Positions 4,020 through 58,146 of a DNA stretch of 64,000 nucleotides are shown piece by piece. The position numbers and the translations under genes are program-made. Position 1 is the first letter of the stretch. The number at the start of each line of letters is the position of its first letter. Source of the DNA: an uncultured Acidobacteriaceae bacterium (GTDB lineage: Bacteria > Acidobacteriota > Terriglobia > Bryobacterales > Bryobacteraceae); NCBI GenBank assembly GCA_963795425.1, contig CAWCHO010000001.1, forward strand, positions 339,086-403,085, written 5' to 3'. Under the pieces are notes generated by a model, which searched no databases, had not been told where the DNA came from, and saw nothing but the letters and a program-made list of their open reading frames with translations.

Positions 4020-5630
4020 CTACGGACTGGAGTGTCCCTGGGCGTGGGGCGCCGGAGTGAAATAAAGATCCTGGTAATCGAAACTGAAATCGGCGAGCGG
4101 TGAGACAGCCACCATCGTGAAGTGATCAACGGTTCCATCGGGTTTCAGGGCGAACGTGAGGAACGCATCCTCGATGCCGCGATCGCGCCAGTGGCTCTTG
4201 AATGTGTTGTACTGCCAGTGCTCCAGGTCGCCGATTGCTTTAGGTGTGTGGTCGAGCGTAAACACCAATTTCCCATTTTCGATGCGAATGGTTGATCGCC
4301 CGTACCAAGCATCGTTATAAACGCCGGCATATTTTTCGAGCGGCAGGGAAGGAGTGGAATTGGATGCTCGCGAGCCAGTCTGTTTCTCCACGACGTCGGC
4401 AGCCTGTCGCTCTTGCGCCACTTCCGTATCGCGAAACGCTCGAATCCAATCAGGGGAAGGAACGTCTAGATAGTGATCGAGGAGGTGGTACGCGATGGAC
4501 TCGAACGCTCCTGCCTCTTCGGCGTTCGTCAGGACCACAATTCCCAGGTGCTCGTCGGGGACTAACTGCACTATCGAGACAAAGCCGGCAACACCCCCCG
4601 TGTGGCCGACTAATTTGCGTCCATGATAGTCTCGCAGCCCCCAACCGAACCCGTAATCTGCAAAGTTCGCTTTGAGGGCGGCGAGCGCCGGAGGCGGATC
4701 GCCGATGGGCAAAATGGTTTGCGGGGACCACATTTCTTTTGATTGTTTCTCGCTGAACAGGCGTTTGTCCGGGTTCGGAAACTTGCCACGGTTCAGTTGT
4801 AAGAGAATCCATTTGGCCATCTCGGAGGCACTCGAATTAATCGAGCCGGCCGGCGCCGCGTTGTCGAGAGGAACAAATTCGATGGACTGCAACCTGCCGG
4901 GCAACTTTGAATGAGGCCAGGCGTAATTGTCGCCTGATTTCCAACTCGCATTCGTAAGCGTGGTTGTGGACATCCCGAGAGGAGTAAGAATCCGCTCACG
5001 GACGTTCTCTTCCCAGGACTTACCCGTGACCGCAGCAACAATCTGCCCAGCGGCTATGTACATCAGGTTGTCGTACGCGTAATGGCTGCGAAAGCTGGAT
5101 TGCGGCTTCATGAACCGGAGGCGATAAACAATGTCCTCTCGCGAGTAGGTTGTATGCGGCCAGAAAAGCAGATCGCCTTCGCCCAGTCCCATTCCGCTCT
5201 TGTGACTGAGCAGGTCGCGAATAGTCATCTCGTGCGATACATACGGGTCATACATCTCGAAACCCGGGAGACGCTCGTAGACTTTGTCATCCCAGGAAAT
5301 CTTTCCCTCATCGACGAGCGATGCCAGAAGGGCCGAGGTGAACGCCTTGGTGTTCGACCCGATTCCAAAAAGGGTATCGGCATCGACCGGAGCTGGATCT
5401 CCCATTTTGCGGATTCCGTATCCCTTGGTGAGCACGATTCTGCCGTCTTTAACGATTACGATCGAGAGGCCCGGCACTTCAAAGGTTTTCAAAACGGTGC
5501 CGATGAAGGTGTCCAGATCCGCGGGCGGCGATTGTCCCCAAAGAGCGGGTGCAAGGATTGCAAGCAACGCGGCGGGGAGCGATCGCGAGATTCTCAGCGG
5601 ATACATGGGTTTGAATGTGTACTTATGCAT
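4020..5630 (-). CDS. Beta-lactamase-fold serine hydrolase (DD-peptidase/esterase class), exported
   Basis: Signal-like N-terminus. SxxK motif 'GSNTKAF', YxN 'YAYDN', and 'GHTGG' in place of KTG. The long C-terminal extension is as seen in PBP4*/EstB-like proteins. Confidence 0.9.
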   Translation of the reverse strand: MHKYTFKPMYPLRISRSLPAALLAILAPALWGQSPPADLDTFIGTVLKTFEVPGLSIVIVKDGRIVLTKGYGIRKMGDPAPVDADTLFGIGSNTKAFTSALLASLVDEGKISWDDKVYERLPGFEMYDPYVSHEMTIRDLLSHKSGMGLGEGDLLFWPHTTYSREDIVYRLRFMKPQSSFRSHYAYDNLMYIAAGQIVAAVTGKSWEENVRERILTPLGMSTTTLTNASWKSGDNYAWPHSKLPGRLQSIEFVPLDNAAPAGSINSSASEMAKWILLQLNRGKFPNPDKRLFSEKQSKEMWSPQTILPIGDPPPALAALKANFADYGFGWGLRDYHGRKLVGHTGGVAGFVSIVQLVPDEHLGIVVLTNAEEAGAFESIAYHLLDHYLDVPSPDWIRAFRDTEVAQERQAADVVEKQTGSRASNSTPSLPLEKYAGVYNDAWYGRSTIRIENGKLVFTLDHTPKAIGDLEHWQYNTFKSHWRDRGIEDAFLTFALKPDGTVDHFTMVAVSPLADFSFDYQDLYFTPAPHAQGHSSP

Positions 5631-6677
5631 TTACTCGGAGGGCGCCGCTTTCGGGATTGCCTCAAACGGGATGTTGAGAATGGGATACTTCTGCCAATCC
5701 TTATAGTCGAAATGCCACCACTCGAATTCGTAGACTTGAAAGCCCTCGTCCTCCATCGCCTGACGCAGCAGATCGCGACGCCAGCGCTCGCGTGAAGTGC
5801 CGCCCGGGTAGTTCGGATAGGAGCGGTCGGACATTTCGTCGTAGACGCCCGTCATCTCTACTTCGCGGCCCGTGCTGAGCTCGTATAGGGTGAGGTCCAC
5901 GGCGCATCCGCGATTGTGGCGCGAGCCTTGTTGGGGATCGGCCACAAATCGTTTCTTGTCGTCCGGCGTCACATCCCAGAAAACCTTCGTGATGTACCAC
6001 GGCCGATAGGCGTCGTGGATGAGAATGCCGTAGCCGAGCGGCTGCAACGTGCGGTTGACGCGAGCGACGGCCTTGGCCGCCGGGCGTTGCAGGAATGCGC
6101 GTGCCTGCGAATAGACCGGGAGTCCGAGAAAATTGTCCGTCGAGGCGTAGCGGATGTCGAGCTTAATCGAGTGATCGAGAGAGGTGATTTCGATGAGATC
6201 GGGTTTCAGAAAATCGCCCTTTTCGGCGGGAGGGTGCTCGGCGAGCGCTTCTTTGGTAAGCTCGGCAACCGGGCGCAGAGGCGTGATGTGGAACACGCCG
6301 CCCGAGACCGCTATCTGAAGGCGCGGATAGGTGGCGTCGCCGATCTTCAATCCTGTCGCCGGGCTGTTTCTCGAGCGAGGAAAGACAACTGGGGTGTGAT
6401 CGCCCGAAAAATGATTTGGCGAGGATTCGACGAGCGCCGTGTCGGTCCCGGAGTGCAGGAGATGTAGGCTGCCGTCTTTCTCAAAGACATAAATCTTGTC
6501 CTTCTCCGTGCCGTATTCGCCGATGATGCCGATCCAATCGGAAGGCGCGGCAGGGGGCATGGGGCTGACGTGGAGAGCGGCTGGCAAGTGTGCGATGAGC
6601 TGGAGCGCAAAAAAGGTGGCGGCTAGAAAAACGCCGAGGACCGAGCGGGATAGGGTTCTTAAATCGGGCTTCGACAT
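5631..6677 (-). CDS. VanX/DdpX-type D-alanyl-D-alanine dipeptidase (M15) with an N-terminal extra domain
   Basis: 'GSRHNRGCAVDL' (SxHxxGxAxD) and 'FEWWHF' zinc-peptidase motifs, plus 'IHDAYRPW'. I set the start to MSKPDL (6677), which gives a hydrophobic signal/anchor. Its stop abuts the next start (5631/5630). Confidence 0.85.
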   Translation of the reverse strand: MSKPDLRTLSRSVLGVFLAATFFALQLIAHLPAALHVSPMPPAAPSDWIGIIGEYGTEKDKIYVFEKDGSLHLLHSGTDTALVESSPNHFSGDHTPVVFPRSRNSPATGLKIGDATYPRLQIAVSGGVFHITPLRPVAELTKEALAEHPPAEKGDFLKPDLIEITSLDHSIKLDIRYASTDNFLGLPVYSQARAFLQRPAAKAVARVNRTLQPLGYGILIHDAYRPWYITKVFWDVTPDDKKRFVADPQQGSRHNRGCAVDLTLYELSTGREVEMTGVYDEMSDRSYPNYPGGTSRERWRRDLLRQAMEDEGFQVYEFEWWHFDYKDWQKYPILNIPFEAIPKAAPSE

Positions 6678-6682
6678 GTTCC

Positions 6683-7807
6683 TTAGACCACAACCGTGCA
6701 GGCGTTCCATTTGTTCGTGCGCACAGTGAGTTTGTCGATGAAATCGCGGCGTACGGAAAATCCAAGGCCAGAAGTTTCGGGGATGCGGATCGTGCCGGCC
6801 GAAGACACTTCGACCTCAGGCTCGATGATGTCGCGCTCCCAGTAGCGGCGGCTGGCGGAGACATCGCCCGGCAGTGTGAAGCCGGGGAGGGTCGACATGG
6901 CGATGTTGTGAGCTCGTCCGATTCCGGACTCGAGCATGCCTCCGCACCAGACGGGCACTGAATGTGACACGCAGAGCTGTTCGATTGCGCGCGCTTCGGT
7001 GTGGCCTCCCACGCGGCCGAGCTTAATGTTGATGATCCGGCAAGCATGCAGCTCGACGGCGTTCGCCGCGGCTCGGGAACTGGCGATGCACTCATCGAGA
7101 CAGATGGCGGTATCGATCTGGCTCTGCAACTTTGAATGCGCGTAGATATCGTCCCAGTACAGCGGCTGTTCAATCATCAGCAGTCGGAATTCGTCGAGCT
7201 TCCGCAGGTGAGGCGCGTCGTCGAGCCGGTAAGCAGAATTCCCGTCGACCGAAAGCAGAATGTCCGGAAACGCGCGGCGCACGGCTGCGACGTATGCGAC
7301 GTCTTTGCCGGGTTTGATCTTGAGCTTGATGCGGCGATACCCGCTGGCAAGCTCTTCCTCGACCTTTTCAACAAGCGCTTGCGGGTTCTCGCGAATGCCG
7401 AGCGAAACGCCACAGGCGATCTCGGTGCGTGTTCCGCCAAGCAGGCGCGCCAAAGGCACGTTCAGCTGCTGCGCGGCGATATCCCAGAGCGCATTTTCCA
7501 CGGCCGCTTTGGCCATTTCGTGTCCGCGGACAGCGGCGACGATCGCGGGAAAATGCTCCGGCGAATCGACCGTCCTACCGATCACTTGAGGAGCGATGAA
7601 TTCTGAAATGATATGCCAGGCAGTGCCGGTGGTCTCGGGATTGTAAGAGGGTGTTTCGCCGGTTGTGACTTCGCCCCAACCCGCCACACCATCGGCGACG
7701 ACTTCGACCAGCAGAATACGCCGGTCTTGGGTAATGCCGAAGCTGGTTTCAAAGGGCGCCTTGAGACGCATGTGCAGCTCGCGCAGAATTATCAATTCGA
7801 TTTTCAT
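6683..7807 (-). CDS. Enolase-superfamily MLE-subgroup enzyme (o-succinylbenzoate synthase / N-acylamino-acid racemase / dipeptide epimerase clade)
   Basis: 'MKIELIILRELHMRLKAPFETSFG' N-terminus, KxK 'IKLKIKPG', metal ligands in 'DGNSAY', 'IEQP' and 'LDE', second lysine in 'INIKLGR'. The start at 7807 makes an ATGA overlap with the permease stop. Confidence 0.85.
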   Translation of the reverse strand: MKIELIILRELHMRLKAPFETSFGITQDRRILLVEVVADGVAGWGEVTTGETPSYNPETTGTAWHIISEFIAPQVIGRTVDSPEHFPAIVAAVRGHEMAKAAVENALWDIAAQQLNVPLARLLGGTRTEIACGVSLGIRENPQALVEKVEEELASGYRRIKLKIKPGKDVAYVAAVRRAFPDILLSVDGNSAYRLDDAPHLRKLDEFRLLMIEQPLYWDDIYAHSKLQSQIDTAICLDECIASSRAAANAVELHACRIINIKLGRVGGHTEARAIEQLCVSHSVPVWCGGMLESGIGRAHNIAMSTLPGFTLPGDVSASRRYWERDIIEPEVEVSSAGTIRIPETSGLGFSVRRDFIDKLTVRTNKWNACTVVV

Positions 7808-9156
7808 CGGGCTCCTCGAAATTTTCGCCTCCATAGGAAGTAAGCTGGCAGGCCGGCGAGAACGATTCCGAGTCCCAGAGCGGCGCGGGCGGGTTGAGTA
7901 GCGATGGTATTTGCGACCAGAACCGCGGCAGCAATGATGAACAGCAACGGTGTGAGGGGATATCCCGGAACACGGTAGGGGCGAATGGCCTCAGGCTGGC
8001 GGCGACGGTAGACGAATACACTGCCAGCCGCGAGACCGTAGAAAATCCAGCCGATGAAGATCACATAAGTTAATAACTGTTCGAAAGTTCCGGTGACGGC
8101 GAGGACAGCCGCCCAAAGGCTAGCCGCCGCTATGGCGAAAGCGGGGGTTCCGAAGCGCGGGTGCACTTCGGAGAGGCGCTTGAAGAAGAGTCCGTCTTTA
8201 GCCATGGCGTAATAGACGCGAGGAGCGGTGAGCACGAGCGAGTTGGCGGCGCTGAACATGGAGACGAGGATGACGGCGGCGACGATTTTCGCGGCGACGG
8301 GTCCGACTACGATCGAGACGGCGGTGGCGGCAACGCGGTTCGAGCCGGCAACACCCACAGGTCCGAGCGCGGCAACATAGCCGAGACTGCTGAAGACGTA
8401 CAGCGCAATGAGGGTGGCGGATCCGACGAGAAACGCGAGCGGAAAGTCGCGTTGCGGATGGATGGTTTCGCCCGCGCTGAAAGTGGCGTACTGCCAGCCT
8501 TCATAGGCCCACAGTACGCTGATCATGGCGAGACCGAAGCCGGAGGCGAGCGATGGAGCAGCGACACGCGCGCCACCCGACGAGTGGATGGTAAAGTTGT
8601 TCCCGAGCAGCAGGAGAGCGGTCGCCATGACCGCGATTGCGATCACTTTGAGCGCTGTGGTGACGTTTTGGAGATCTGCACTGCGACGGGTCCCGAGCAT
8701 GTTTACAGTGCAGATAACGGCAATGACCAGAACCGACACCAGCTTGGCGGCAAACGGGGTGAGAGGGACAAATTCAGCGAAGTAGTTGCTGAATGCCACC
8801 ACCAGCGTGGCGATCGAGCCCGCGCTGATCACGAAGAACAGAGTCCAGCCGAAGAGGAACGCGAGCAGCGGACCGAAGCAGTCGCGGATGAAAATGTAGA
8901 GTCCGCCGGCCTCGGGTTTCATGGCGCTCAACTCGCCGTAGGTGAGTGCACCTAGAAGCGAAAGGACGCCGCCGGTGAGCCACACCGACGTAGCTAGCGA
9001 GACCGAGTTGCCGACCGAACGCAGCACAGCTCCGGGGACGAGAAAAATACCCGATCCGATCACGGTCCCGACGACCAGGAACACAAGATCGCGCATCCCA
9101 AGGGTGCGGCGAAGCTGCGGCTGCCATCGACTCGCGACCATTTCCTGCGGCGGCAC
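7804..9156 (-). CDS. APC-family amino-acid permease
   Basis: 12-TM-like protein. 'GTVIGSGIFLVPG' is the signature of amino acid/polyamine/organocation transporters. Confidence 0.85.
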   Translation of the reverse strand: MPPQEMVASRWQPQLRRTLGMRDLVFLVVGTVIGSGIFLVPGAVLRSVGNSVSLATSVWLTGGVLSLLGALTYGELSAMKPEAGGLYIFIRDCFGPLLAFLFGWTLFFVISAGSIATLVVAFSNYFAEFVPLTPFAAKLVSVLVIAVICTVNMLGTRRSADLQNVTTALKVIAIAVMATALLLLGNNFTIHSSGGARVAAPSLASGFGLAMISVLWAYEGWQYATFSAGETIHPQRDFPLAFLVGSATLIALYVFSSLGYVAALGPVGVAGSNRVAATAVSIVVGPVAAKIVAAVILVSMFSAANSLVLTAPRVYYAMAKDGLFFKRLSEVHPRFGTPAFAIAAASLWAAVLAVTGTFEQLLTYVIFIGWIFYGLAAGSVFVYRRRQPEAIRPYRVPGYPLTPLLFIIAAAVLVANTIATQPARAALGLGIVLAGLPAYFLWRRKFRGAR

Positions 9157-9160
9157 GCGT

Positions 9161-11209
9161 TTAGTAATTCAGATGGAAATTGAGGATTCCCCAGTAGAGC
9201 AAAATCCAGGAGAAACCGATGCAGGCGAGCGCGACGGCAGTGGCGAACAATCTGCTCCATAACTGACGCCCGCGGGGCGTGATAGGCGATGCGGGAGCAG
9301 TTTCCGGCGCGCGAGAATCCCGTGGGGTAGAGCGCCAGACCAGCCATGCATAATAGATCGCGACGAATGTGCCGATCACCGCGAGGATTCCCAAAAATTG
9401 CAAAAGATGGATCCACTTATCCAGAGAATCGTTGAGAGCCGTAATGTCATCGCTCTTCGAGAACACCGCAACGAATCCGGCGACTACGATGAGATCGAGC
9501 AGACAGATCAGGCGCGTGAGCAGGCGCAGGCGGCGTTCGCGAGGAGCCCATTCGAGGCGTGCGCGGTAATGCCTGCGCACCAAAGGCGAGATGGGCCAGA
9601 AGAGTACGGCGAGAATGAGGATCGCGAGGCTTGTAAAGAGGACAAAGTAATTGAACGGCTTTGATTGGAGAACGCCGACCTTCTGGAACACCATGAAGGG
9701 GAAGTCAATGCCGAAATTGGTCCTTCCGTCATAGCCCCGGTAGAACGCGATTTTTTCCTGTCCGTCGACATTCTGATAAACCCTTGGAGCGATCTCGCGG
9801 AATTTCATCGGTTTCCCATTGAAGCCATGCAGTTCCTCAACGGTGACAGTGCCGTCGGACCCGGGCTTGACTTTTGTCTCGCCGGGCATTGAGCTGACGA
9901 AAAGGAAGTTGCCTTCGAGGCGACGGCTGACCATGTAATCACCGGCGACTTGCTTCGCGTCAGAAGAGGCGGACGAGATGGCGGGCGGCGTGGGAGTGCG
10001 ATACGGAAAGTAGCGATCCAGGAAAAACTGCCAGAGGGCGGTGCGATCGCTGATGGTACTCTTACCGGCACTGTTGTAAGAGACAAAAAAGCCGAGGTTC
10101 GCATCGGGCATCAGATGGAGATCGCTGTGAAAGTAGAGCGTGTCTCCTCCATGTCCGATGATGCGGTGACCATTTCTGGTCTCTTCATAGAAGCCCAGGC
10201 ACATCGCATTGAGCGCGTCTCCAGCGGGCAACGCCTGACGCGTGTGCATCATTTGAACCGTTTGCGGCTTCAGGATTTGGGCCCCATTGTATTGCCCATT
10301 TTGAAGGTGCGCCATCATAAAGTGCGTCATGTCCATGGCCGAAACCGCACTGCTTCCAGCGGGCCACGGCTGTATGTACTCGTAGTCCTTCGCGGGTTCC
10401 GAAGCGGTCTTGTAGCCGCACGACATGAGGTCCTTCAGATTGGCCGGAAGAGGCTGATCGAAGGTGCAATGCTGCATGCCGAGAGGCTTGAAAATGTTGT
10501 CTGCAATGTACTGATCAAATGGCTTGCCGGACACCCGCTGAACAATGTAGCCCGCGAGCGTAGTTGCATAGTTTGAGTAAGCGGGCGTGGTACCGGGCGG
10601 GAATATGCGTGCCGGCATATGGTCGATCACATAGGTACGCAGAGGGGTGAGTTTTTTGGGATCGCTCACCCACATGTCCTTGGCAGTCTCACTGAAGCCC
10701 GCGCTGTGAGTCATGATATTGCGCAAGGTGATGGGCTTGTCGAACTTGGCGGGAACTTTGAAATCCAGATAGTCATTCACGTCGCGATCGAGGTCGAGCT
10801 TTCCTTGCTCGACTTGCTGCATGACTGCGGTCCAGGTGAATAGTTTCGAGATGGATCCGGGGCGGAAGAGAGTATCGGTGGGCGAGACGGGCTTTTTGGA
10901 TTTCACGTCGGCGTAGCCGTAGCCTTTTGCGAAAATCACCTTGCCGTCTTTGACAATGGTGATCACCGCGCCGGCGATGTCGTCGCGCTCGAGCGAGAGC
11001 GGCATGAGGCCATCGAGGAACGCTTCGATGTCGGCACTTTCGAGTGCATGCGTGGAGGTGGGAGCGTTTGCCTCGATCTTCGGCTCAGGTTGAGGCTTGG
11101 GAACGAGTGGACCTTGCTTCAGGGTTTGCGAAGCGGCCGCAAACACCGCGATGAGTATTACGACGGCGACACGGACGTGCGCGGCAGAGCCAAGCTTTTT
11201 AGGGGGCAT
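9161..11209 (-). CDS. Beta-lactamase-fold serine hydrolase fused to a C-terminal multi-TM domain
   Basis: Signal peptide, SxxK 'GSISKLF', YxN 'YSNYA', 'GHGGDT'. The last roughly 170 residues contain about four hydrophobic helices. Confidence 0.85.
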   Translation of the reverse strand: MPPKKLGSAAHVRVAVVILIAVFAAASQTLKQGPLVPKPQPEPKIEANAPTSTHALESADIEAFLDGLMPLSLERDDIAGAVITIVKDGKVIFAKGYGYADVKSKKPVSPTDTLFRPGSISKLFTWTAVMQQVEQGKLDLDRDVNDYLDFKVPAKFDKPITLRNIMTHSAGFSETAKDMWVSDPKKLTPLRTYVIDHMPARIFPPGTTPAYSNYATTLAGYIVQRVSGKPFDQYIADNIFKPLGMQHCTFDQPLPANLKDLMSCGYKTASEPAKDYEYIQPWPAGSSAVSAMDMTHFMMAHLQNGQYNGAQILKPQTVQMMHTRQALPAGDALNAMCLGFYEETRNGHRIIGHGGDTLYFHSDLHLMPDANLGFFVSYNSAGKSTISDRTALWQFFLDRYFPYRTPTPPAISSASSDAKQVAGDYMVSRRLEGNFLFVSSMPGETKVKPGSDGTVTVEELHGFNGKPMKFREIAPRVYQNVDGQEKIAFYRGYDGRTNFGIDFPFMVFQKVGVLQSKPFNYFVLFTSLAILILAVLFWPISPLVRRHYRARLEWAPRERRLRLLTRLICLLDLIVVAGFVAVFSKSDDITALNDSLDKWIHLLQFLGILAVIGTFVAIYYAWLVWRSTPRDSRAPETAPASPITPRGRQLWSRLFATAVALACIGFSWILLYWGILNFHLNY

Positions 11210-11235
11210 AAAGGTTTTCTGTAATCAGCTAGCGA

Positions 11236-14691: not shown

Positions 14692-14868
14692 AACCTGCCC
14701 CTTTTCGGAAGGCCGCTTGGCCCCGACTTGCACGGAAGATGCCTGGCCGGCGAAGCTCGGCTCCGCGAATCTCCGCGTTAAGTAAATTAGAGAAAGTGTG
14801 CACCAACTGTTGCACCCTTGTCAAGTGCGCGGTAAATAGATTGAGACGGCCCCTGGCGGGCGTGCCGA

Positions 14869-15777
14869 TTACGGGTCGTGGTTCTGATACCAGCGCGCCC
14901 CGGAAGTGTACTCCTGTTCGTTGCGGCGCAGGCGCTCGAGCGTCCGCTTGGGGTGTATGTGTGCGACCGCGGAAATGATGGCATTGATGGCCGCGAGCGG
15001 CGCGACGTAAGAGCCGGTGAATACGGTACTCGAGATCGGCGTCACGATATGTTCATCGCAGAATCGCGCAATCGGGGTAACCTCGCTATCAGTGATGCCG
15101 AAAGTGAATACACCGCGCGATTTGGCGTGCCGAACGCTCTCGACGGTATCGCGCAGACAGCGCCCGAAGCTGATCGCGATTAGCAGATCTGTCTTATCGA
15201 GCAGATCCACGGTGTGCCGCAAGTTGCCCGAGCTTCCGGTTGGCGCGTCGGAGTAAAAGCCCTGTACGCGGAGACTGTAGGCGAACGCTCCAGCAAGAAA
15301 CGCGGCGAAATCCACGCCAATCACTAGAGTTCGCTGCGATTTTTGAATACGTTCGGCGACGAGCAAGATGCGAGTGGTATCGAGGCCCGCCAAGAGAGCT
15401 GTCAGGTTTTCCGTGTCGCGCTCGATATTGTGTCGAATTCTATCCGCCAAGGGGCGCCGGTCACGGGTGGTGGCGCGCATGACGGTATAGGGCGTAATGC
15501 GAGTCACGAAATGGTTCCGCAAATCGCTGGCAAAGTCGGCGAAGCGGTCATAACCGAGCGCCTGAATCGTACGTACGATTGTGGCCGCGTTGACGTTGTA
15601 TCGTTTGGCGAGTTCCCGGGAGGAAAGGAAGTAATTATCCTCCGGGTGCTCGAGGATGGACCGGATCAGATCGCGACGGCTGCCGTTCAACTTGCGCTGA
15701 GCCTGAGCGAAGCGCGTCTCGAGCTCCGTCGCAGATCTCACTGGAGCTCGGTCGTGTGCCTCACCTCGGACGGGCAT
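14869..15777 (-). CDS. RpiR/MurR-family transcriptional regulator (HTH + SIS domain)
   Basis: N-terminal 'SSRELAKRYNVNAATIVRTIQALGY' HTH_6-like segment, followed by a SIS-like phosphosugar-binding half. Confidence 0.85.
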   Translation of the reverse strand: MPVRGEAHDRAPVRSATELETRFAQAQRKLNGSRRDLIRSILEHPEDNYFLSSRELAKRYNVNAATIVRTIQALGYDRFADFASDLRNHFVTRITPYTVMRATTRDRRPLADRIRHNIERDTENLTALLAGLDTTRILLVAERIQKSQRTLVIGVDFAAFLAGAFAYSLRVQGFYSDAPTGSSGNLRHTVDLLDKTDLLIAISFGRCLRDTVESVRHAKSRGVFTFGITDSEVTPIARFCDEHIVTPISSTVFTGSYVAPLAAINAIISAVAHIHPKRTLERLRRNEQEYTSGARWYQNHDP

Positions 15778-15895
15778 GTGTCTCTCCGAACCGGGACGGA
15801 CCAGGTTAGATGCCGCAGAATAGCAGAAAAGACGGGACGGTGCAATATGTGTTGCACGCCCCCGGGGTTTTCAAATCGTTTCGGCCTCCGTCGTT

Positions 15896-18049: not shown

Positions 18050-18118
18050 AAACTGCTCAGTCTAACGCCAACTGTTTCGCGAGTCTCTCGAACGGTCGAC
18101 TTCGTGCCGGCTGGAGTC

Positions 18119-21100
18119 TCAATTCTGGTTTTGCCAGCCGGGCCTGCGTAAGACTTTGCCGGCCTTCGTCCCCGTCAGTTGCCCAGCTTCGTATTCAAGC
18201 TGCCCGTTAACAAAGACATACTTGACGCCCTCTGAAAGTTGAGTTGGATCTTTGTAAGTTGCCCTGTCTTCGATTGTTCGCCGATCGAAGATGGTGATAT
18301 CGCCGAAGTAGCCTTCCTTTAGCAAACCCCGATCGTGTAGACCTTCTCGCTGAGCAGGCAATGACGTCATCTTCCGAATGGCCTCCGAAAGCGGGAGCAG
18401 ATGCTCATCGCGGACGTAGTGCCCTAAGAAACGCGGCATTGATCCGTAAGCCCGCGGGTGATCGTGTGGCTCGAACAGCGAACCGTCTAGTGATTTCTCG
18501 GACGCATCGAGGCAGAGACTGGTCCAAGGCTGCTTCAGACCGTAGCGCAAGTCGTCCTCGCTCGCGATGAAATAGATCGCGCCCGTCTCAGCCTTGTCAT
18601 CTACAACCAGATCCATCAAAGCATCTAATGGATCTTTTTTCTGTGCGGCCGCGATCTCGGCGATAGTCTTGCCGTCGAATTTTTTAAGCTGAGGATTTTG
18701 GATGCCGGAAACTAGAACTCCACTCCCGCCTCCGCTATCGAGATACAGGTTTTCCCAATCCTGATGATCTGAAGCCATTTCTTTCTTGATCTTCGAGCGC
18801 GTCGCAGCGTCACCCAGTCTTTCGAGGAGCTTTTGAGACCCACCTTCGGCTACCCAGGGCGGCAAGCTCGCCGCCAATGACGTGCCGCCTGCAACGTAAG
18901 GATACATGTCCGCCGAGACATCTTGTCCCGAATCGCGCGCGGCCTGAATCATCCCGACGATCTTTGGCATCGATCCCCAGCGACTCTTGCCGATGACTTT
19001 CAAATGGAAGATTTCTACCGGAAGGTGTGCCTCCCGTCCTATGCGTACCGCCTCGTCGATGGCGGCAATTTCGCTTTGACCTTCGCTGCGCATGTGCGTG
19101 CCGTAAATTCCGCCGTATTGAGCAGCTACTTTTGCCAGCTCGATCAGTTCGTCGGTCCTGGCATAATGGCCGGGCGGATAGATGAGAGCCGTAGAAATTC
19201 CAAACGCTCCCTGTTGCATGGCTTCAGCGACCAGCGCTTTCATCTTCATGAGCTCTTCGGGAGTAGGGGCCCGGTCCGCATGGCCCAAAATGGCCTCTCG
19301 CACCTGAGCTGCGCCCACATAGGTCCCAATGTTTAGAGGAGTTCCGACTTTTTCAAGCCTTTCGAAGTACCCATTCAGAGTGGTCCAGTCCACTTTCAAG
19401 TGAAATTGATTGAGCTGCGGCGCAAGGTCGGCAAGCGTGATGGCGTTTTGAGGAGCAATCGAATTTCCCTCGCCCGTAATTTCCGTCGTAATGCCTTGCG
19501 ACAACTTGCTCAACGCGCGATTGTCGATCAGAAGAGCCACTTCGGATTGGCCGAGCATGTCAATGAAACCCGGTGAGACTACCAGACCAGAGGCATCGAT
19601 TACGCGCTTGGCTTTCGCGTCGCGCAGGTTCCCGATAGCGGCAATCCGGTCACCGTTGATGGCGACATCGGCGGAAATCCAAGGATTCCCGGAGCCGTCG
19701 ATAAGTTTTCCGTTTCTGATGAGGACGTCATAGACCGTGCCGCTCTGGTTTTGAGGCTCCGATTCGACTGGCGCGTCATAAGCCGCGGCCGCGACCTCCC
19801 CCACAGCTTCCCCGGGGATCCTTTGTAGCGCGTCGGCATCGCCCTTTGGGACAGCGACCATGTTCACGTAAATCGCGAATGCGAGGTGCTGTCCATGAGC
19901 AGTTTGCATGTAACCGGCCAGTCCCTTGCCCGTGACCATGACGTTGTTGTTCAACGCGTCCAGGACGGCATATGTCCCGGTTTTGGCGTGTACGTGGCCG
20001 GCAGCGGGCGAGTTCACTTGAATTTTGAACAGAGTGCCATCGCGTCCTAAGATAGGCAGCCCTCGGTAAAAAAAGCTGTAGTCCTTCTGCTTCGAAAAGA
20101 AGGTGAGATAACGAACCATGAAATCCGCCGTGAAGAAGGCATTTCCGCCCGCGCCGTCGCTTTGGGATGCAGCAGTCAAATCCAGTCCGGCCTTCTGCAG
20201 AAAGTCATGCTCGAGATGGAAGCCGGCCTGGTCGGTTTCTGTATTTTTATGGCCGACCAGCGCCTCTAGCAGAAAAGGCGTCGTGCTCGCATGTAGATTC
20301 TGGCTCAGCTTCAGTGTGATTTTCACGTCCTCTTTAAAAGGCGGCGAGATATGTTCCGCGACCATGTTCCCGGCGTTGTAGTTCCGCGAGAGTGCTTTGA
20401 AATTCGGCTCTGCTGCGCTAGGCGCAAGCTGTACGTCGATGCCCCTTTGTCTCAATGCCTCGACAAGAACAGTTGCAGCAAAGCGGCTGGGCTTCTGTAC
20501 GGGGTACGCCATCATGCCGAAAGGCTTGCCGAGCGGTATGCTGCCGCTTACCGTAACTGTGTGCGTACCGTCTGGATTGGTCTTATCGGCGGTGTAATCG
20601 ATGTCTGGCCTGGAATCCGGATTCCCGGTGATCGCCTTATTCACAATTTGCACGTACGACGTTGTTGGGGCGATTCGCAGATTGACGGGCGCGCCCTCAG
20701 TAGCTCCCGGACTCGCGACCACATCGATCAAGTTGTCATTGACCACGATGGGCGAAATGACAACCCCTGTTCCTAATTCGCGGGCGCCCTCAGGAAAGAG
20801 ACTGACGTCGACGAGCAAGTGTCCGCTGACCCGCTTGATTCCTTTTTCCGCAATCTGTTTTGCCAACTCATGGATTACCAGCAGCGGATCGGTTCCGACC
20901 CCTTTGCTGGCGGCTCCTCCGTACGAGTGATCCTCATTTTCAAAACCGAGAGTGTCGTCAGGCTGAATACGCCCGGAGAGATTCGGATCTCCGCTGGCAA
21001 CTAGAACCAGGTCACCTTCGAGGGTTCCATCCTTGTTCACAGCACCGTTGCGATAGACGCGGGTGTGAAAACGGTAGTCGGCGCCAAGCAACTCGAGTGC

Positions 21101-21334
21101 TGTGCCTTCCGTTAAGAGCTTGGTAGTCGAACCCGGAACCAGCAGCTTGTCTGGATTCAAACGGTAGATCACCTGTCCGGAATCCAAAGAATAGAATTCG
21201 ATGCCAAACGTGGAGTGCGCGAATTCCGGACGGCCTATGACGTCCCGAATGCGCGCGGATAAAGTCGGCTGCTGTGCGAGAACAATTCCGCTGAGTAGGA
21301 AGCAAACGCAACAGGTTCGCAAAAAAGTACGCAT
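18119..21334 (-). CDS. Fusion protein: S13 PBP4-type D-Ala-D-Ala carboxypeptidase/endopeptidase (N) + D-aminoacylase-like amidohydrolase (C)
   Basis: Residues 1-495: signal peptide, 'PGSTTKLLT' (SxxK), 'SQN', 'HAKTGT' (KTG). There is an acidic/Pro linker at about residues 496-533. Residues 534-1071: 'YDVLIRNGKLIDGSG...INGDRIAAIG', 'YGTHMRSEG', 'IFHLKV', 'HPRAYGSMPRFLGHYVRD', all as in N-acyl-D-amino-acid deacylases. It is a single uninterrupted ORF. Confidence 0.9.
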   Translation of the reverse strand: MRTFLRTCCVCFLLSGIVLAQQPTLSARIRDVIGRPEFAHSTFGIEFYSLDSGQVIYRLNPDKLLVPGSTTKLLTEGTALELLGADYRFHTRVYRNGAVNKDGTLEGDLVLVASGDPNLSGRIQPDDTLGFENEDHSYGGAASKGVGTDPLLVIHELAKQIAEKGIKRVSGHLLVDVSLFPEGARELGTGVVISPIVVNDNLIDVVASPGATEGAPVNLRIAPTTSYVQIVNKAITGNPDSRPDIDYTADKTNPDGTHTVTVSGSIPLGKPFGMMAYPVQKPSRFAATVLVEALRQRGIDVQLAPSAAEPNFKALSRNYNAGNMVAEHISPPFKEDVKITLKLSQNLHASTTPFLLEALVGHKNTETDQAGFHLEHDFLQKAGLDLTAASQSDGAGGNAFFTADFMVRYLTFFSKQKDYSFFYRGLPILGRDGTLFKIQVNSPAAGHVHAKTGTYAVLDALNNNVMVTGKGLAGYMQTAHGQHLAFAIYVNMVAVPKGDADALQRIPGEAVGEVAAAAYDAPVESEPQNQSGTVYDVLIRNGKLIDGSGNPWISADVAINGDRIAAIGNLRDAKAKRVIDASGLVVSPGFIDMLGQSEVALLIDNRALSKLSQGITTEITGEGNSIAPQNAITLADLAPQLNQFHLKVDWTTLNGYFERLEKVGTPLNIGTYVGAAQVREAILGHADRAPTPEELMKMKALVAEAMQQGAFGISTALIYPPGHYARTDELIELAKVAAQYGGIYGTHMRSEGQSEIAAIDEAVRIGREAHLPVEIFHLKVIGKSRWGSMPKIVGMIQAARDSGQDVSADMYPYVAGGTSLAASLPPWVAEGGSQKLLERLGDAATRSKIKKEMASDHQDWENLYLDSGGGSGVLVSGIQNPQLKKFDGKTIAEIAAAQKKDPLDALMDLVVDDKAETGAIYFIASEDDLRYGLKQPWTSLCLDASEKSLDGSLFEPHDHPRAYGSMPRFLGHYVRDEHLLPLSEAIRKMTSLPAQREGLHDRGLLKEGYFGDITIFDRRTIEDRATYKDPTQLSEGVKYVFVNGQLEYEAGQLTGTKAGKVLRRPGWQNQN

Positions 21335-21460
21335 CCGCTGAACAAGGTAGCACTAGTCTCCTTGAACCGGCGGACCAAGCGCTGGAGCGGGAGAAATTCC
21401 TACTCCAACGCTTGTTTCTAACGGCCACTCAGGCGCGAGATGTCGCGAACCGATAAGATC

Positions 21461-24400
21461 TCAGAACCGGAGCATCCCTTTGATCTCGATGAAACGCGGC
21501 GAACTGCCGGCCCCTACGAACGAGCCCAACAGGCTGGTGGGCGGTCCAACTGCGGCGATGCTGTAACCGAACTGAGGATTGGCGACGTCGTTGACCGGCT
21601 GGTCAAAATTCGGATGGTTGAATAGGTTGTACGCCTGAGCGCCGAACGAGAATTTCACGCGTTCAGTGATTGCGATGTCTTTCATGACTGCCATATCGAC
21701 GTCGAAGAAATTCGGACCGCGGAGCGAATTGCGTCCGGCCGTCCCGAAGCCTGTGAGTACCCCGCTAGCCGCATAGCTGGGAGCAAACTGGGACGTGGTG
21801 AGGCAAGCTGTGTTGACTGCGCTCGTGCAGTTCGCCGAGAGAGAAGAAGTGGGCGAAGCAAAAATTGCCCCGGCGTAATTGAACCCTAGCAAGCTATCTA
21901 AGGCGGAGTTGTCGACGGGCGTGAATGGCAGGCCAGTGCGGAAGAACCAGTTGCTCGAGAGCGTCCACCCTCCAAATATCCGATTGGGCCCCCAATGGAA
22001 CCCCGAATGGCGGAACATGTCGGTGAGCACGAAGTTTGCACTCACGTAATGCCGGACGTCGTAATCCGCACTTGCGTAGTTACCTCGAATATTGAACGGG
22101 TTTTGTGGGAGTGTGATGCTGGGGTCGGTATCGAGGATTCCGAATGGGGAATTGGCGACGCCGCCATTTGAGACGTCATCGAGAGCATGGCTCCACGTGT
22201 AATTTAGATTGAAAGTAAGTCCAGCCGATAGCCGTCTCTCCAAGCTGACGGTCAGGCCGTCGTAATTTGAATTGGCAGCGGAAAGATACTGAGCTACCAG
22301 CCCAAGCGCGGGATCGGGCGGCGCGCCAGGCAAACCAGCAAAGCCATTCGGGCATGCGCCCGGAGGGCAATAGGCGTTCAGACCTTCATCCGCGATCGGG
22401 ATGTGACTGCCATGCATTCCAGAGTAATTGAGAGTGAGCACCATCTTAGACGTGATCGCCTGCTCAATTTGAAAGTTCCATTTGTAATAGGTAGGTTGGT
22501 GGAAGTAACTCGGGAAAGAGAAGAAGCTCGGGGCAGCAAAGCCGGGCACTCCCGCGGAGATGGAATTGAAGCTTCCGCCGGAAGCGAACTGCGAGCGCAG
22601 AGCTTGATTCGCCGCCGCCGTGGTGGTAAACAGGCTTCCCGGCACACCGGGCGCGATTGCGCCGTTCCCGATAGTGAATGCATTCAGCCCCGGGGAATTG
22701 AACGCCGCGTCTTCCGCTAAGACGCCCGGCAGTTCGTCGGCGAAGATGCCCGCGCCGGTTCGGATAATGGTGTTACTGCTGCCGAATGGCTTCCACGCTA
22801 TTCCCAACCTGGGTTCCCAGACCACCGTCTGCGTGTTCGCGTAGGCTTGGTGCTGCCCCGAAAGGATGAATTGGTTGTAAGGCGTAGAGGTGGCGTTGGC
22901 GACGGGCGCGCCGTTGAACGTCGTCGCGAGACGAGAGAAGCAATTTGCATCGCAGGTGGGATTCGCGTAGCTTTCGAGACGCAAATTCAAGGAAACCGTC
23001 AGACCATCGCGGATTCTCCAATCGTCGGCGATGTAGCCGCCGAAAGTATTGAAGCGCAAACCCTGTTCGGACGAGGAGGGAAAGGCCTGGTTTAGAGACG
23101 TATTTACCCCTCCTCCGTTAAAGAAGTCGGACAAGTTTGTCGTAACGGATCCGTAGATCGGACCGCCAAGCGCCTGAAAATCGAGATCGGTGATGTTGGA
23201 ATGCAGCCAGCTAAACCCTGCCCGGAAGGTGTGCCTTCCCCGGACATGCGAAAGATCGTCCAGAATCTGATACTGAAACACGCGCCTTCCTTGCGGGAAA
23301 AAGAAGGGGCCGGGCTCGCCCAGAGCGCCAACCGATGAAAAAGCGCCGCCAGAGAAGTTCATGAATGTCGGCAATGCCGTTAGCGCAGCGCTTTCGTTGC
23401 TTGGCGTGAACACCGCTGCGTAGAAGAGCGCGGACCCGCTGAATTGATTCACAGTATTTGGTCCGAACGTGTGCGTCTCACTGACCTGCGCGTTCATTTG
23501 GGGCTGATTGCTTTGAGCGTTAAAGGTCGGGCCAAAGGGACTGGTAAATGACGGCTGATAGCCGTTGTCGCGCAGCACGCGAATGTAGCCGTGATCTTTC
23601 TCGCTAAAGTTGTGGTCAACTCGAGATGACCATTGATACTCCTTGTTGGTATTGGGGGGCGTCGTGCGGAACTCATCCGCGCACGGAACGCCGGTCGGCA
23701 AGCCCGTGAAACCCTGGCACCCGTATCCCTGAGATGCCGGAACTGGAGTGGCCGCGCCAACTCCGGGCGCACCGTTGTAGACGCCAAAGATCTTGTTATA
23801 GAACGGAATCTCGGCGGCTTCCCCGACGGCTGTCAAATTCGCCAAAGTGGCCGCCTGAAATTGCGGACTGGGAACGAGTGTCAACGCACTTGCTGTGGGC
23901 AGCAGATTGCGAAGACCTTCATAATCTACATCGAAGAACGTGTGGTTTTTCCAGATCGGCCCCTGTACGCCTGTAGCCCACTGATTGAAGTTATTAAAAG
24001 GTGTGGGCTGTCCCACTTGGTTACTAAAGAACTGGTTGGCATTCAAGGCGCGGCCATTCCACATATACACCGCGTTGCCATGAAAGTCGTTGCTCGCCGA
24101 CTTTGTGATGTAAGTGACTTGTGAACCTGCATACTGGCCGTACTGCCCCGAATAGGCGCTGTTGATCACATTGGCTTGGGCGATATCATTCGAACCGAGC
24201 AGCAGGTTAGACGCACCGCTGTTATTGATGCCAGAAAAGGGATCATTGTAATTCTGGCCGTTGATACTGAACAGGTTCGACGTGCCAGGCATTCCGTCGG
24301 CCACGAAGTTACCATAACCGGCCTGTGTGTTCATCACCACGCCAGGCGCAGTCTGCGCCACGTACGTGATATCACCGCCGGGATTCGGCAAGTTCTGAAT

Positions 24401-24859
24401 CATCTGAGTGTTGAATGTCGTCGTTGTGTCCGCATTTTGAGTTTGCAGCGCGGTGACAGATTCAGTGACTTCGACTGTTTGCCGCGACGACGCTAATGTA
24501 AGTTGCAAATTCGCAGACGTAGGTTGTCCGGCGACTACGACGATATTGTTGATACTTTTGGGCTGAAAACCCGATCCAGTGACTTGTAATTTGTAAGTGC
24601 CGGGTGCGACAAATGCAAACCGGTAGTCACCGTGAGCGCCAGTCTGCGCCGTTTGCGAGGTGTTTGTGGCTAATCCGGTCAAGGTGACCGTGGCGGCCGG
24701 AACTGCGCCGCCGCTCGGATCTGTGATGACGCCGGTGATGGCGCCCGTCGTAATGGACTGTGCAAAGACGCCGGTAGGTAAGACGAGGGCGATGAGGCAG
24801 CGCTTTAGAAGTTTAGACAGCGTACCCGGATGGCGGGGTCTCTTCGAGTCATGTTGCAT
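21461..24859 (-). CDS. TonB-dependent receptor, CarboxypepD_reg type
   Basis: Signal peptide, 'GAITGVITDPSGGAVPAATVTL', 1132-aa beta-rich body, terminal '...KGMLRF'. Confidence 0.85.
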   Translation of the reverse strand: MQHDSKRPRHPGTLSKLLKRCLIALVLPTGVFAQSITTGAITGVITDPSGGAVPAATVTLTGLATNTSQTAQTGAHGDYRFAFVAPGTYKLQVTGSGFQPKSINNIVVVAGQPTSANLQLTLASSRQTVEVTESVTALQTQNADTTTTFNTQMIQNLPNPGGDITYVAQTAPGVVMNTQAGYGNFVADGMPGTSNLFSINGQNYNDPFSGINNSGASNLLLGSNDIAQANVINSAYSGQYGQYAGSQVTYITKSASNDFHGNAVYMWNGRALNANQFFSNQVGQPTPFNNFNQWATGVQGPIWKNHTFFDVDYEGLRNLLPTASALTLVPSPQFQAATLANLTAVGEAAEIPFYNKIFGVYNGAPGVGAATPVPASQGYGCQGFTGLPTGVPCADEFRTTPPNTNKEYQWSSRVDHNFSEKDHGYIRVLRDNGYQPSFTSPFGPTFNAQSNQPQMNAQVSETHTFGPNTVNQFSGSALFYAAVFTPSNESAALTALPTFMNFSGGAFSSVGALGEPGPFFFPQGRRVFQYQILDDLSHVRGRHTFRAGFSWLHSNITDLDFQALGGPIYGSVTTNLSDFFNGGGVNTSLNQAFPSSSEQGLRFNTFGGYIADDWRIRDGLTVSLNLRLESYANPTCDANCFSRLATTFNGAPVANATSTPYNQFILSGQHQAYANTQTVVWEPRLGIAWKPFGSSNTIIRTGAGIFADELPGVLAEDAAFNSPGLNAFTIGNGAIAPGVPGSLFTTTAAANQALRSQFASGGSFNSISAGVPGFAAPSFFSFPSYFHQPTYYKWNFQIEQAITSKMVLTLNYSGMHGSHIPIADEGLNAYCPPGACPNGFAGLPGAPPDPALGLVAQYLSAANSNYDGLTVSLERRLSAGLTFNLNYTWSHALDDVSNGGVANSPFGILDTDPSITLPQNPFNIRGNYASADYDVRHYVSANFVLTDMFRHSGFHWGPNRIFGGWTLSSNWFFRTGLPFTPVDNSALDSLLGFNYAGAIFASPTSSLSANCTSAVNTACLTTSQFAPSYAASGVLTGFGTAGRNSLRGPNFFDVDMAVMKDIAITERVKFSFGAQAYNLFNHPNFDQPVNDVANPQFGYSIAAVGPPTSLLGSFVGAGSSPRFIEIKGMLRF

Positions 24860-36363: not shown

Positions 36364-36523
36364 CGCAAACTCCTCCTCACCTATGCACACGCCTAGTAAC
36401 TGCAGATGTGTTGACTAGGACGGCTAAGCCTCAGAATTTCTTTACAAGGGCTGCAAAAAATATTTCGCCGCCGCTGGCTGGAGGCGAGCTGAAATTCGTG
36501 GTACAGTCCTCCTCAAGATCTCG

Positions 36524-47930: not shown

Positions 47931-48071
47931 TGCGTCCTCCCGAGATCCATCCAAGGATCGACCTGATGACGTCATGTCCTGATGCAAAAGTCTATCTCGC
48001 GGCGGGTATGATTTGACTAGCGAATGCTCGAGGACGAGTGCGCAGAGCGTTTCCGATAACGAGCGAGCATG

Positions 48072-58051: not shown

Positions 58052-58146
58052 GTGGTTCCTCGAGGGCCTTACTTATTGGACGAATCTGCGACTATTTTAT
58101 TCCGCCGGTTGCTCACAGTGTATACAATATCGTGTACATACAAACC

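Follow-up and report, generated by a model that had tools for sequence, protein, structure and literature searches.

A probable TonB-linked locus for D-peptide catabolism in Terriglobia-type Acidobacteriota

A large share of the organic nitrogen in soil and the sea, with slow turnover, consists of D-amino acids and fragments of peptidoglycan, and to our knowledge their consumers and the routes that these use are largely unknown. Acidobacteriota, which are difficult to study, rank among the most abundant bacteria in soil. In Escherichia coli, ddpXABCDF combines the DdpX dipeptidase with an ABC dipeptide importer, and Salmonella has the periplasmic enzyme PcgL; murein peptides are salvaged in E. 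coli by MppA/Opp, MpaA, the L-Ala-D/L-Glu epimerase YcjG, and PepD. Here, we describe ten consecutive genes on the minus strand of a 64,000-nt stretch of contig CAWCHO010000001.1, from an uncultured Acidobacteriaceae bacterium (the whole stretch is hereafter the window). We judge the chances about even that they represent a modular locus with which Terriglobia-type Acidobacteriota catabolize small peptides containing D-amino acids, the likeliest substrates being peptidoglycan stem peptides and D-Ala-D-Ala set free from dead bacteria. Taken separately, and as far as sequence comparison can tell, a TonB-linked D-peptide catabolic locus is probable and peptidoglycan is a plausible source of its substrates. 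Each of the enzyme families, receptor-linked catabolic loci, DdpX-type salvage, and D-to-L conversion based on N-succinylamino-acid racemases (NSARs) are already known; new are the gene combination, two fusion families, a putative Cys-less exported deacylase, and a candidate operator. Literature searches found no description of the locus, of the fusion families, of a Cys-less exported deacylase, or of the operator; the author of a preliminary description of this DNA knew of no characterized receptor-linked locus with such a composition.

Like E. coli ddp, the locus has a VanX-type dipeptidase that would serve nutrient salvage and not vancomycin resistance, and, like PcgL, this enzyme appears to be exported. 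In contrast to ddp, uptake would involve a TonB-dependent receptor and an APC permease instead of an ABC system, and the protein differs from DdpX in its extra N-terminal module, its fusion to S12 hydrolases in relatives, and a score below the DdpX cut-off. Murein peptide salvage in E. coli likewise joins an enolase-superfamily epimerase/racemase to peptidases and leads from D-residues of stem peptides to L-forms, whereas the enolase here is of the NSAR type (E = 1e-100) and not a dipeptide epimerase (1e-29), and the genes are clustered, receptor-linked, and mostly for periplasmic proteins.

NSAR operons of the Geobacillus kaustophilus type are presented as an irreversible route from D- to L-amino acids in PMC12006748, which cites Sakai et al. 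2006, and the DgcN/DgcA D-glutamate pathway (PMC12363236) is a related system. The window shares with the NSAR operon an enolase of the NSAR/OSBS subfamily encoded outside a menaquinone operon, and in 13 relatives a similar pairing of racemase and GNAT genes follows the same logic of acylating, racemizing, and deacylating. The window itself differs in having neither GNAT nor an L-specific desuccinylase, and the sole amidohydrolase is D-type and periplasmic. Beyond what the NSAR operon offers, the module includes a receptor in the outer membrane, D-Ala-D-Ala enzymes that are exported, and S12 hydrolases. The ong cluster for oxidized chitin in Pseudoalteromonas encodes a TonB-dependent receptor, a MurR/RpiR regulator, OngB, and a "D-amino acid deaminase" (PMC9537276). 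Both systems are receptor-linked and consist of several operons with an RpiR-family regulator and an amidohydrolase of the D-aminoacylase family. Unlike in ong, the window genes include no GH20 hexosaminidase, KDG kinase, RidA, or OngC deaminase, and the Cys-less amidohydrolase is part of an exported PBP4 fusion whose partners are peptide and D-amino-acid enzymes.

Conservation of the module in other Acidobacteriota

Domains in the window were called with Pfam and NCBIfam, and gene limits were taken from a list of open reading frames (ORFs), in which the ten genes run from 24859 down to 4020. The list bears out their number, strand, coordinates, and range of gaps as first described, and the domain searches back each of the domain assignments then proposed. 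The anchor of the module is the gene of a fusion between a PBP4 and a D-aminoacylase-like domain. We fetched 84 loci around this gene, 82 of them non-redundant (the counts below exclude the window), searched them with the window proteins, and separately clustered all locus ORFs de novo. The top neighbors of the fusion gene in the de novo clustering were the window's own genes.

Orthologues of the enolase occur in 30 of the 82 loci (directly upstream of the fusion in about 19), of the RpiR regulator in 26 (50-58% identity, a second RpiR type of 35% identity being present in others), of receptor 2 in 20 (46-57%), of the transmembrane (TM)-anchored S12 hydrolase in 17, and of the APC permease in 15 (62-73%); a VanX-type gene was found by tblastn in 15. 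With the fusion, these make seven window genes that recur together. The remaining genes are rare or missing: the S12 hydrolase with a DUF3471 domain was found in three loci, where the same family adjoins the enolase (L017, L020, and L031), the S9 peptidase adjoins the fusion in only two (L012, 70% identity; L050, 45%), and receptor 1 has no orthologue near the fusion in any of the 82. An AraC-type regulator gene next to receptor 1 in the window has one weak match (28% identity). The neighborhood conservation that the preliminary description had proposed to check in other Acidobacteriota was thus found for seven of the ten genes, whereas receptor 1 was not conserved and the S9 peptidase and DUF3471 hydrolase were rarely so.

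The seven genes come in at least four arrangements with non-conserved flanks: (a) S12-receptor 2-RpiR divergent from enolase-fusion; (b) RpiR-APC-GNAT-enolase-S12::VanX-fusion on one strand, with another receptor family divergent from rpiR; (c) RpiR (35% type)-VanX-fusion beside ilvC and a gamma-glutamyltranspeptidase (GGT) gene; and (d) the fusion by itself, with murJ as its neighbor in six cases and S9, M61, and S15 peptidases nearby in others. Genes outside the module in arrangements (a) and (b) are unrelated singletons. That the module stays intact while gene order and flanks vary argues for functional linkage, not for shared ancestry alone. Chance juxtaposition of common families was rejected as an explanation, because the neighbors recur, rearranged, amid flanks that are not conserved.

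The receptor of arrangement (b), with Plug and TonB_dep_Rec matches, lies divergent from rpiR in eight loci. Together, the two receptor families accompany the module in about 29 loci, which supports uptake as one of its functions. Six loci (L049, L023, L024, L026, L029, and L033) encode S12::VanX as a single ORF, a family of about 800-870 aa with a linker of ~240 aa; in L049, it spans 7353-9971 (872 aa), and its residues 504-836 are 53% identical to the window's VanX-type protein, including a ~130-aa module that precedes the M15 domain. A 253-aa GNAT is encoded directly beside the enolase in the 13 relatives mentioned above. Just after the fusion, three loci have a D-ser_dehydrat-like gene and three an S15 peptidase gene; a GGT gene follows it in ten or eleven, and M61 peptidases occur near the fusion in six loci other than the window. 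The gamma-D-glutamyl bond of stem peptides is a possible target of GGT. Homologues of GNAT (best tblastn E = 0.46), GGT, the D-Ser-dehydratase-like protein, S15, and a 148-aa ORF were not found in the 64-kb window, and an L-deacylase or desuccinylase was found neither there nor among the recurrent neighbors of the fusion.

In roughly 35 of the 82 loci, the fusion gene has no module partner, and in six of these it lies beside murJ, the gene of the lipid II flippase; a housekeeping role of the fusion in the wall would fit this pattern. The strongest rival to a catabolic locus starts from here: the fusion would serve these bacteria as their usual PBP4, extended by a domain for trimming, and its neighbors would recover stem peptides and D-Ala that the cell itself releases when it recycles or remodels its wall, instead of feeding on foreign material. 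The sacculus is the target of PBP4 enzymes, E. coli possesses comparable salvage sets in DdpX with its ABC importer and in MpaA/YcjG, and the fusion is near-universal in these lineages. We nevertheless regard own-wall recycling as rather unlikely. Turnover products released in the periplasm need no outer-membrane importer, yet two receptor families are linked to the module; AmpG, AmpD, LdcA, and Mpl-type recycling genes do not recur near it; and there is a dedicated repressor-type regulator with candidate operators at the receptor operon.

A distant clade (L051, L061-L063, L067-L069, and L072-L075) has a different conserved context of the fusion: ilvC, often the 35%-type RpiR and/or VanX, and the fusion are followed by an opposite-strand ORF of 130-165 aa with no Pfam match and a gamma-glutamyltranspeptidase gene.

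Enzymes and receptors of the locus

The N-terminal half of the fusion is a Peptidase_S13 domain (PF02113, 199 bits; TIGR00666, 162.5 against a cut-off of 107.8) that matches the PBP4 enzymes of E. coli and Bacillus subtilis (2EX2 and 1W5D, E = 7e-25). It has the same Ser/Lys catalytic motifs as these enzymes, S69TTK72, S344QN346, and K451TG453 being invariant among 13 homologues, and differs from them by an 11-residue insertion after KTG. Alignments with 1W5D, 3A3D, and 2WKE are gapped at the presumed positions of the meso-diaminopimelate pocket. The C-terminal half matches the D-aminoacylase of Alcaligenes faecalis (PDB 1M7J, E = 3e-91) and keeps its His220, His250, Asp366, and Arg377 (H747, H777, D950, and R961), as well as the YPY hinge motif (Y811-P-Y813), all of them invariant in the family. 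Unlike the Alcaligenes enzyme, it is devoid of the HxH motif (His67/His69 of 1M7J), which is replaced by L594-G-Q596, and of the bridging Cys96, which is deleted (T-G-E622-G); a conserved Glu, E622, stands beside the gap. Both losses are invariant across the fusion family, which points to a conserved variant and not to decay. Active D-acylases with no bridging Cys exist and possibly prefer other substrates (PMC12149444).

Compared with the Alcaligenes and PBP4 enzymes, the fusion joins what would be both activities in one exported polypeptide, a signal peptide being present in 13 of 13 homologues. More than 1100 homologues were found in metagenomes; the top 120 are all full-length and 70-79% identical, and the nearest relative, from a metagenome-assembled genome (MAG) of an uncultured Acidobacteriaceae bacterium, is 79% identical. 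A scan with one genome per species returned 568 relatives carrying the fusion, and the best 80 of these, which were examined, all come from Acidobacteriota-type MAGs and have both domains (57-79% identity). Public annotation of the fusion covers one half only: the NCBI label is "D-alanyl-D-alanine carboxypeptidase/endopeptidase," and JGI uses "N-acyl-D-amino-acid deacylase" or "dihydroorotase."

Since structures of OngB also match the C-terminal domain of the fusion (E = 4e-64), one could read the locus as an ong-type pathway in which this domain deacetylates an N-acetyl amino-sugar acid and RpiR senses a sugar derivative; the D-ser_dehydrat-like gene after the fusion in three relatives would be in keeping with that. 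The ong case cautions that a receptor, an RpiR regulator, and a D-aminoacylase homologue may together serve the catabolism of sugar acids, yet we find this reading highly improbable here. The domain is closer to true D-aminoacylase, exported, and fused to PBP4; its partners are VanX, an NSAR racemase, and S12 peptidases; GH20, KDG kinase, and RidA are missing from the window and from the recurrent neighbors of the fusion; and the window has no OngC-like D-amino-acid deaminase.

The enolase scores 347 bits with TIGR01928 (cut-off, 200.65) and matches the N-acylamino-acid racemase (NAAAR) and NSAR structures 1R0M, 2ZC8, and 1SJA with E = 1e-100 to 1e-95; these racemases, of the N-acylamino-acid or N-succinylamino-acid type, are from Deinococcus, Thermus, and Amycolatopsis. 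Its alignment with 1R0M shows KLKIK, VDGNS, IEQP, LDE, and IKLGR, so that the KxK pair, the Asp/Glu/Asp metal ligands, the second Lys, and the subfamily residue Arg266 (K-L-G-R) are kept. A role as dipeptide epimerase was rejected on the E-values given above (1e-29 versus 1e-100). By these comparisons, the protein is a racemase of the NSAR/NAAAR type within the NSAR/OSBS subfamily, predicted to be cytoplasmic, which refines the earlier assignment to the MLE subgroup and its racemase/epimerase clade.

Such a racemase might also run toward D-amino acids. NSAR and a D-acylase drive the conversion of N-acyl-L-amino acids to free D-amino acids in vitro (PMC12149444), and, given the racemase gene directly upstream of the fusion in about 19 loci and GNAT in 13, the three enzymes could produce D- from L-amino acids for PBP4 to exchange into the wall. 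Here, however, the racemase is predicted to be cytoplasmic and the deacylase exported, no exporter is present, and the receptor, permease, VanX, and peptidases are functions of uptake and degradation; we therefore see very little likelihood in wall editing.

In the VanX-type protein, the equivalents of Arg71, His116, Asp123, Glu181, and His184 align with 1R44 (motifs DAYRP, SRHNRGCAVD, and EWWH). About 170 residues precede the M15 domain, among them the conserved ~130-aa module, and a hydrophobic segment at 20-46 makes the protein appear exported or membrane-anchored. A cassette for vancomycin or beta-lactam resistance was considered and rejected, since vanH/vanA and sensor genes are missing and neither S12 protein comes near the cut-off of any beta-lactamase model.

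The TM-anchored S12 hydrolase has SISK, YSN, and HGG motifs and four C-terminal TM segments (517-546, 561-587, 598-626, and 652-678), which would anchor its catalytic domain on the periplasmic side. Its remote PDB relatives (E ~1e-29 to 1e-26) include Pab87, Flp, and alkaline D-peptidase, and the match with the R61 DD-peptidase is weaker (2e-17). The DUF3471 hydrolase has SNTK, YDN, and HTG motifs and remote matches to Pab87, alkaline D-peptidase, ClbP, and D-aminopeptidase. Solved structures are only remotely related to either protein (E ~1e-29 or weaker) and mix D-stereospecific enzymes with esterases and class C beta-lactamases.

These relatives bring in a different substrate class, namely nonribosomal peptides, lipopeptides, or N-acyl-D-amino acids, which the locus would degrade or resist with its S12 proteins as D-stereospecific peptidases, the deacylase and racemase processing the products. 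The DUF3471 hydrolase is remotely similar (7e-20) to ClbP, whose target is an N-acyl-D-Asn prodrug motif; the TM-anchored protein, with an S12 domain ahead of a TM bundle, has a ClbP-type architecture; and both S12 proteins are remotely similar to alkaline D-peptidase. NSAR and D-acylase, moreover, are an enzyme pair that acts on N-acyl-D/L-amino acids (PMC12149444). Against this stand the specificity of characterized PBP4 (S13) and VanX enzymes for D-Ala-D-Ala termini, as in wall precursors and stem peptides, the fact that ClbP is not among the top matches of the TM-anchored protein, and the absence of efflux or biosynthetic genes. This explanation seems improbable to us.

Among NCBIfam models, those of the LAT and general amino-acid transporter subfamilies match the APC permease best, in each case below cut-off. 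An N-terminal signal or anchor was found on the fusion, the S9 peptidase (a hydrophobic signal), both S12 proteins, the VanX-type protein, and the receptors; the enolase and the RpiR regulator have none.

Both receptors have the PF25183 barrel (453 bits in receptor 1 and 617 in receptor 2). When the N-terminal stretch was scanned alone, receptor 1 reached 26.1 bits with Plug, above the cut-off of 23.9, and receptor 2 reached 21.4, just below it; orthologues of receptor 2 have faint Plug and weak TonB_dep_Rec matches. The two are 25% identical to each other. Four CarboxypepD_reg/OMP_b-brl_4 receptor genes in all lie in the window (21461-24859, 11236-14733, 32821-36390, and 62485-63945, the last running off its end), with mutual identities of 25-31%. 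No tonB/exbBD genes were found in the 64 kb. Nor was there a Pfam match to SusD/RagB, unlike in the SusC/SusD pair of a Bacteroidota-type polysaccharide utilization locus; next to the receptors are the genes of the fusion, the AraC regulator, RpiR, and an S12 hydrolase. Receptor 2 is the putative conserved importer of the module. Receptor 1 adjoins the module and is lineage-specific, so its membership is uncertain. Import across the outer membrane, as first proposed, is supported by the two linked receptor families.

Proposed catabolic route

In the catabolic route that we propose, a TonB-dependent transporter would import peptides, receptor 2 being the conserved one and the other family standing in for it in some relatives. 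In the periplasm, the fusion is predicted to cut D-Ala-D-Ala ends or DD-cross-links with its PBP4 domain. From a D-residue whose alpha-carboxylate is free, the attached Cys-less deacylase-like domain might remove an acyl or peptidyl substituent; candidate targets are a tetrapeptide's C-terminal D-Ala or the L-Ala|D-isoGlu bond. The VanX-type enzyme would split D-Ala-D-Ala, the two S12 hydrolases and the S9 peptidase could cut the remaining bonds, and the APC permease would bring the freed amino acids into the cell. There, the NSAR racemase is expected to turn N-acylated D-amino acids into the L-form, a step that needs an N-acyltransferase and an L-deacylase. The RpiR regulator presumably binds YGCAAC-N4-GTTGCR upstream of its own gene and of the receptor 2 operon. 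Peptidoglycan would be the likeliest source of the peptides because characterized PBP4 and VanX enzymes are specific for D-Ala-D-Ala.

A fuller version, which we hold to be doubtful, would be an RpiR-controlled, TonB-dependent "D-peptide utilisation locus" with two uncharacterized fusion families, PBP4::Cys-less D-aminoacylase and S12::VanX, that strip the D-residues of stem peptides stepwise before GNAT and NSAR take them from D to L. If true, abundant soil Acidobacteria would have a specific pathway that consumes bacterial cell-wall necromass, and its deacylase domain would represent a novel, mononuclear form with the activity of an LD-carboxypeptidase or an L-Ala|D-isoGlu amidase. The conserved locus offers testable genes (the receptor, the two fusion enzymes, and the predicted operator) and would supply marker genes for necromass turnover in metagenomes.

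Several points weigh against a D-peptide catabolic locus fed by peptidoglycan. The D-Ala-D-Ala enzymes are its sole tie to peptidoglycan, and the VanX-type protein scores below both equivalog cut-offs (151.2 against 176 for DdpX and 102.3 against 320 for VanX). Amidase, muramidase, and MurNAc genes are not among the neighbors that recur around the module, so that the "muropeptide-derived" origin given in the preliminary description was an inference, and the fusion often stands alone or beside murJ, as detailed above. RpiR/SIS regulators normally sense sugar phosphates, and no sugar enzyme is encoded in the cluster. The S12 and S9 families also hold esterases and L-specific peptidases, and the specificities given for the enzymes of the cluster are predictions. 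The loss of HxH and of the bridging Cys means that the substrate of the deacylase domain may differ from that of D-aminoacylase, and the D-aminoacylase homologue OngB deacetylates an amino-sugar acid, GlcNAc1A (PMC9537276). Receptors of the type found here are very frequent in the genome, with four in the 64-kb window, so that receptor adjacency alone is weak evidence; the cluster is more than chance because of the synteny in relatives. Lastly, the window contains no GNAT, L-deacylase, GGT, or D-Ser-dehydratase, which leaves the D-to-L route incomplete here.

The preliminary description had seen a link to D-stereochemistry or to the cell wall in every enzyme. The theme of D-stereochemistry is strengthened by the NSAR/NAAAR-type enolase, by the intact residues of VanX and PBP4, and by the GNAT, S12::VanX, and D-Ser-dehydratase-like genes of relatives. 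It was overstated for the S9 and S12 proteins and for the D-aminoacylase-like domain, whose metal site is non-canonical. The conversion of D-residues into L-amino acids that the preliminary description had proposed would be incomplete in the window, where the acyltransferase and L-deacylase required for it are both missing.

Regulation, transcription units, and surroundings

The regulator had been listed as RpiR/MurR, with MurNAc-6-phosphate named as the signal of MurR-type members. It can be assigned to the RpiR family only: the MurR equivalog gives 27.8 bits against a cut-off of 408, other NCBIfam equivalogs are likewise far below cut-off, and the cluster has no murQ/murP-type genes, which leaves MurNAc-6-phosphate sensing unsupported.

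Two 18-nt palindromes with the motif YGCAAC-N4-GTTGCR flank rpiR (Table 1). No other full match to the 18-base pattern exists in the 64-kb window, and tolerating one mismatch brings in one more site, within the S9 gene. The exact 18-base pattern was found in none of the 84 loci. The relaxed core GCAAC-N4-GTTGC is matched perfectly at 22 sites in the 1.67 Mb that the loci comprise, against about 2 expected, 20 of them beside module genes and mostly in rpiR-proximal intergenic regions, and a relaxed pattern is ~27-fold enriched upstream of module genes. Copies of the core typically number two or three, spaced 85-110 nt; such arrays lie beside rpiR in L011, L021, L023, L024, L025, L029, L033, L037, and L049, and L011 has a perfect copy just upstream of the fusion gene as well. 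No convincing operator site precedes the fusion, S9, receptor 1, or AraC genes in the window. A candidate RpiR operator common to rpiR and the six-gene operon is therefore what these matches suggest.

Rather than the single unit first supposed, the operator sites and a hairpin indicate that the ten genes probably form three or four transcription units, most likely receptor 1; the fusion with S9; rpiR; and, as one operon, the six closely spaced genes that begin with receptor 2 and end with the DUF3471 hydrolase. The hairpin has no T-run and is a possible terminator separating two of these units. A scan for consensus promoters and terminators gave counts at or below shuffle expectation. Gaps are 126 nt between receptor 1 and the fusion, 69 nt between the fusion and S9, 118 nt between S9 and rpiR, and 135 nt between rpiR and receptor 2, or 177 nt with the start of receptor 2 at 14691, which is probably the true one. 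Within the six-gene set, they shrink to 26 nt (receptor 2-TM-anchored S12), 4 nt (TM-anchored S12-APC), ~5 nt (enolase-VanX), and 0 nt (VanX-DUF3471 hydrolase); APC and the enolase share an ATGA overlap provided that translation of the enolase begins at Met10 (7807), which is probably its true start and the residue from which the PDB alignments run.

Table 1. Coordinates of the gene cluster and of associated sequence features in the window
Feature	Position (nt)	Strand	Domains or remarks
AraC-type regulator	25145-26059	-	Eleventh same-strand gene, upstream of receptor 1
Receptor 1 (TonB-dependent-receptor-like, 1132 aa)	21461..24859	-	CarboxypepD_reg + OMP_b-brl_4
16-bp hairpin	21376..21414	-	Receptor 1-fusion gap; -52 kcal/mol, z = -3.6 vs shuffles
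PBP4::D-aminoacylase-like fusion (1071 aa)	18119..21334	-	Peptidase_S13 26-492, Amidohydro_3 577-1046
Exported S9 serine peptidase, beta-propeller (717 aa)	15896..18049	-	Peptidase_S9 + PD40/DPPIV_N
Palindrome GTGCAACACATATTGCAC	15840..15857	.	Upstream of rpiR; candidate RpiR operator (autoregulation)
RpiR-family regulator	14869..15777	-	HTH_6 + SIS (Pfam)
Palindrome GTGCAACAGTTGGTGCAC	14798..14815	.	rpiR-receptor 2 gap, just downstream of a TTGACA hexamer; candidate operator of the six-gene operon
Receptor 2 (TonB-dependent-receptor-like, 1165 aa)	11236..14733	-	OMP_b-brl_4 (617 bits) + CarboxypepD_reg
TM-anchored S12 (beta-lactamase-fold) hydrolase (682 aa)	9161..11209	-	PF00144, 215 bits
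APC-superfamily amino-acid permease (450 aa), inner membrane	7804..9156	-	AA_permease_2, 179 bits
NSAR/OSBS-subfamily enolase	6683..7834	-	MR_MLE N + C domains, TIGR01928
VanX/DdpX-type dipeptidase	5631..6710	-	Peptidase_M15, residues 172-338, 120 bits
Exported S12 hydrolase with C-terminal DUF3471 (536 aa)	4020..5630	-	PF00144, 225 bits; DUF3471, 97 bits

Beyond the AraC gene lies a divergent sugar cluster (SSF symporter, class II aldolase), and the genes below 4020 are encoded on the opposite strand. Among the latter, an isocitrate/isopropylmalate dehydrogenase gene at 2170-2908 (+) is split into two overlapping frames, ORF 2170-2529 covering profile positions 148-206 and ORF 2444-2908 positions 209-348; the first ~147 profile positions are missing, as an MFS gene ends at 2044. 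This is likely a pseudogene or an assembly frameshift.

The far part of the window, 38472-60705, is a mosaic of genes for glycan and peptide degradation: a GH42 beta-galactosidase (38472-40586), an esterase (40592-41635), an M61 glycyl aminopeptidase (44545-46320), a GH31 enzyme (48938-51163), an alpha-L-arabinofuranosidase (51178-52749), an ADOP duplicated permease typical of Acidobacteria (53119-55938), a GH127 enzyme (56009-58051), and a DPP-IV/S9 peptidase (57964-60705). The last two genes are divergent (- and +, respectively) and overlap by 88 nt with their longest-ORF starts, and the start codon is probably over-extended in at least one of them. Three minus-strand ORFs of 581-620 aa (29358-31220, 46185-47987, and 60727-62472) have no Pfam match at E <= 0.01; the first adjoins the genes of a beta-helix protein (31121-32809) and of the receptor at 32821-36390.

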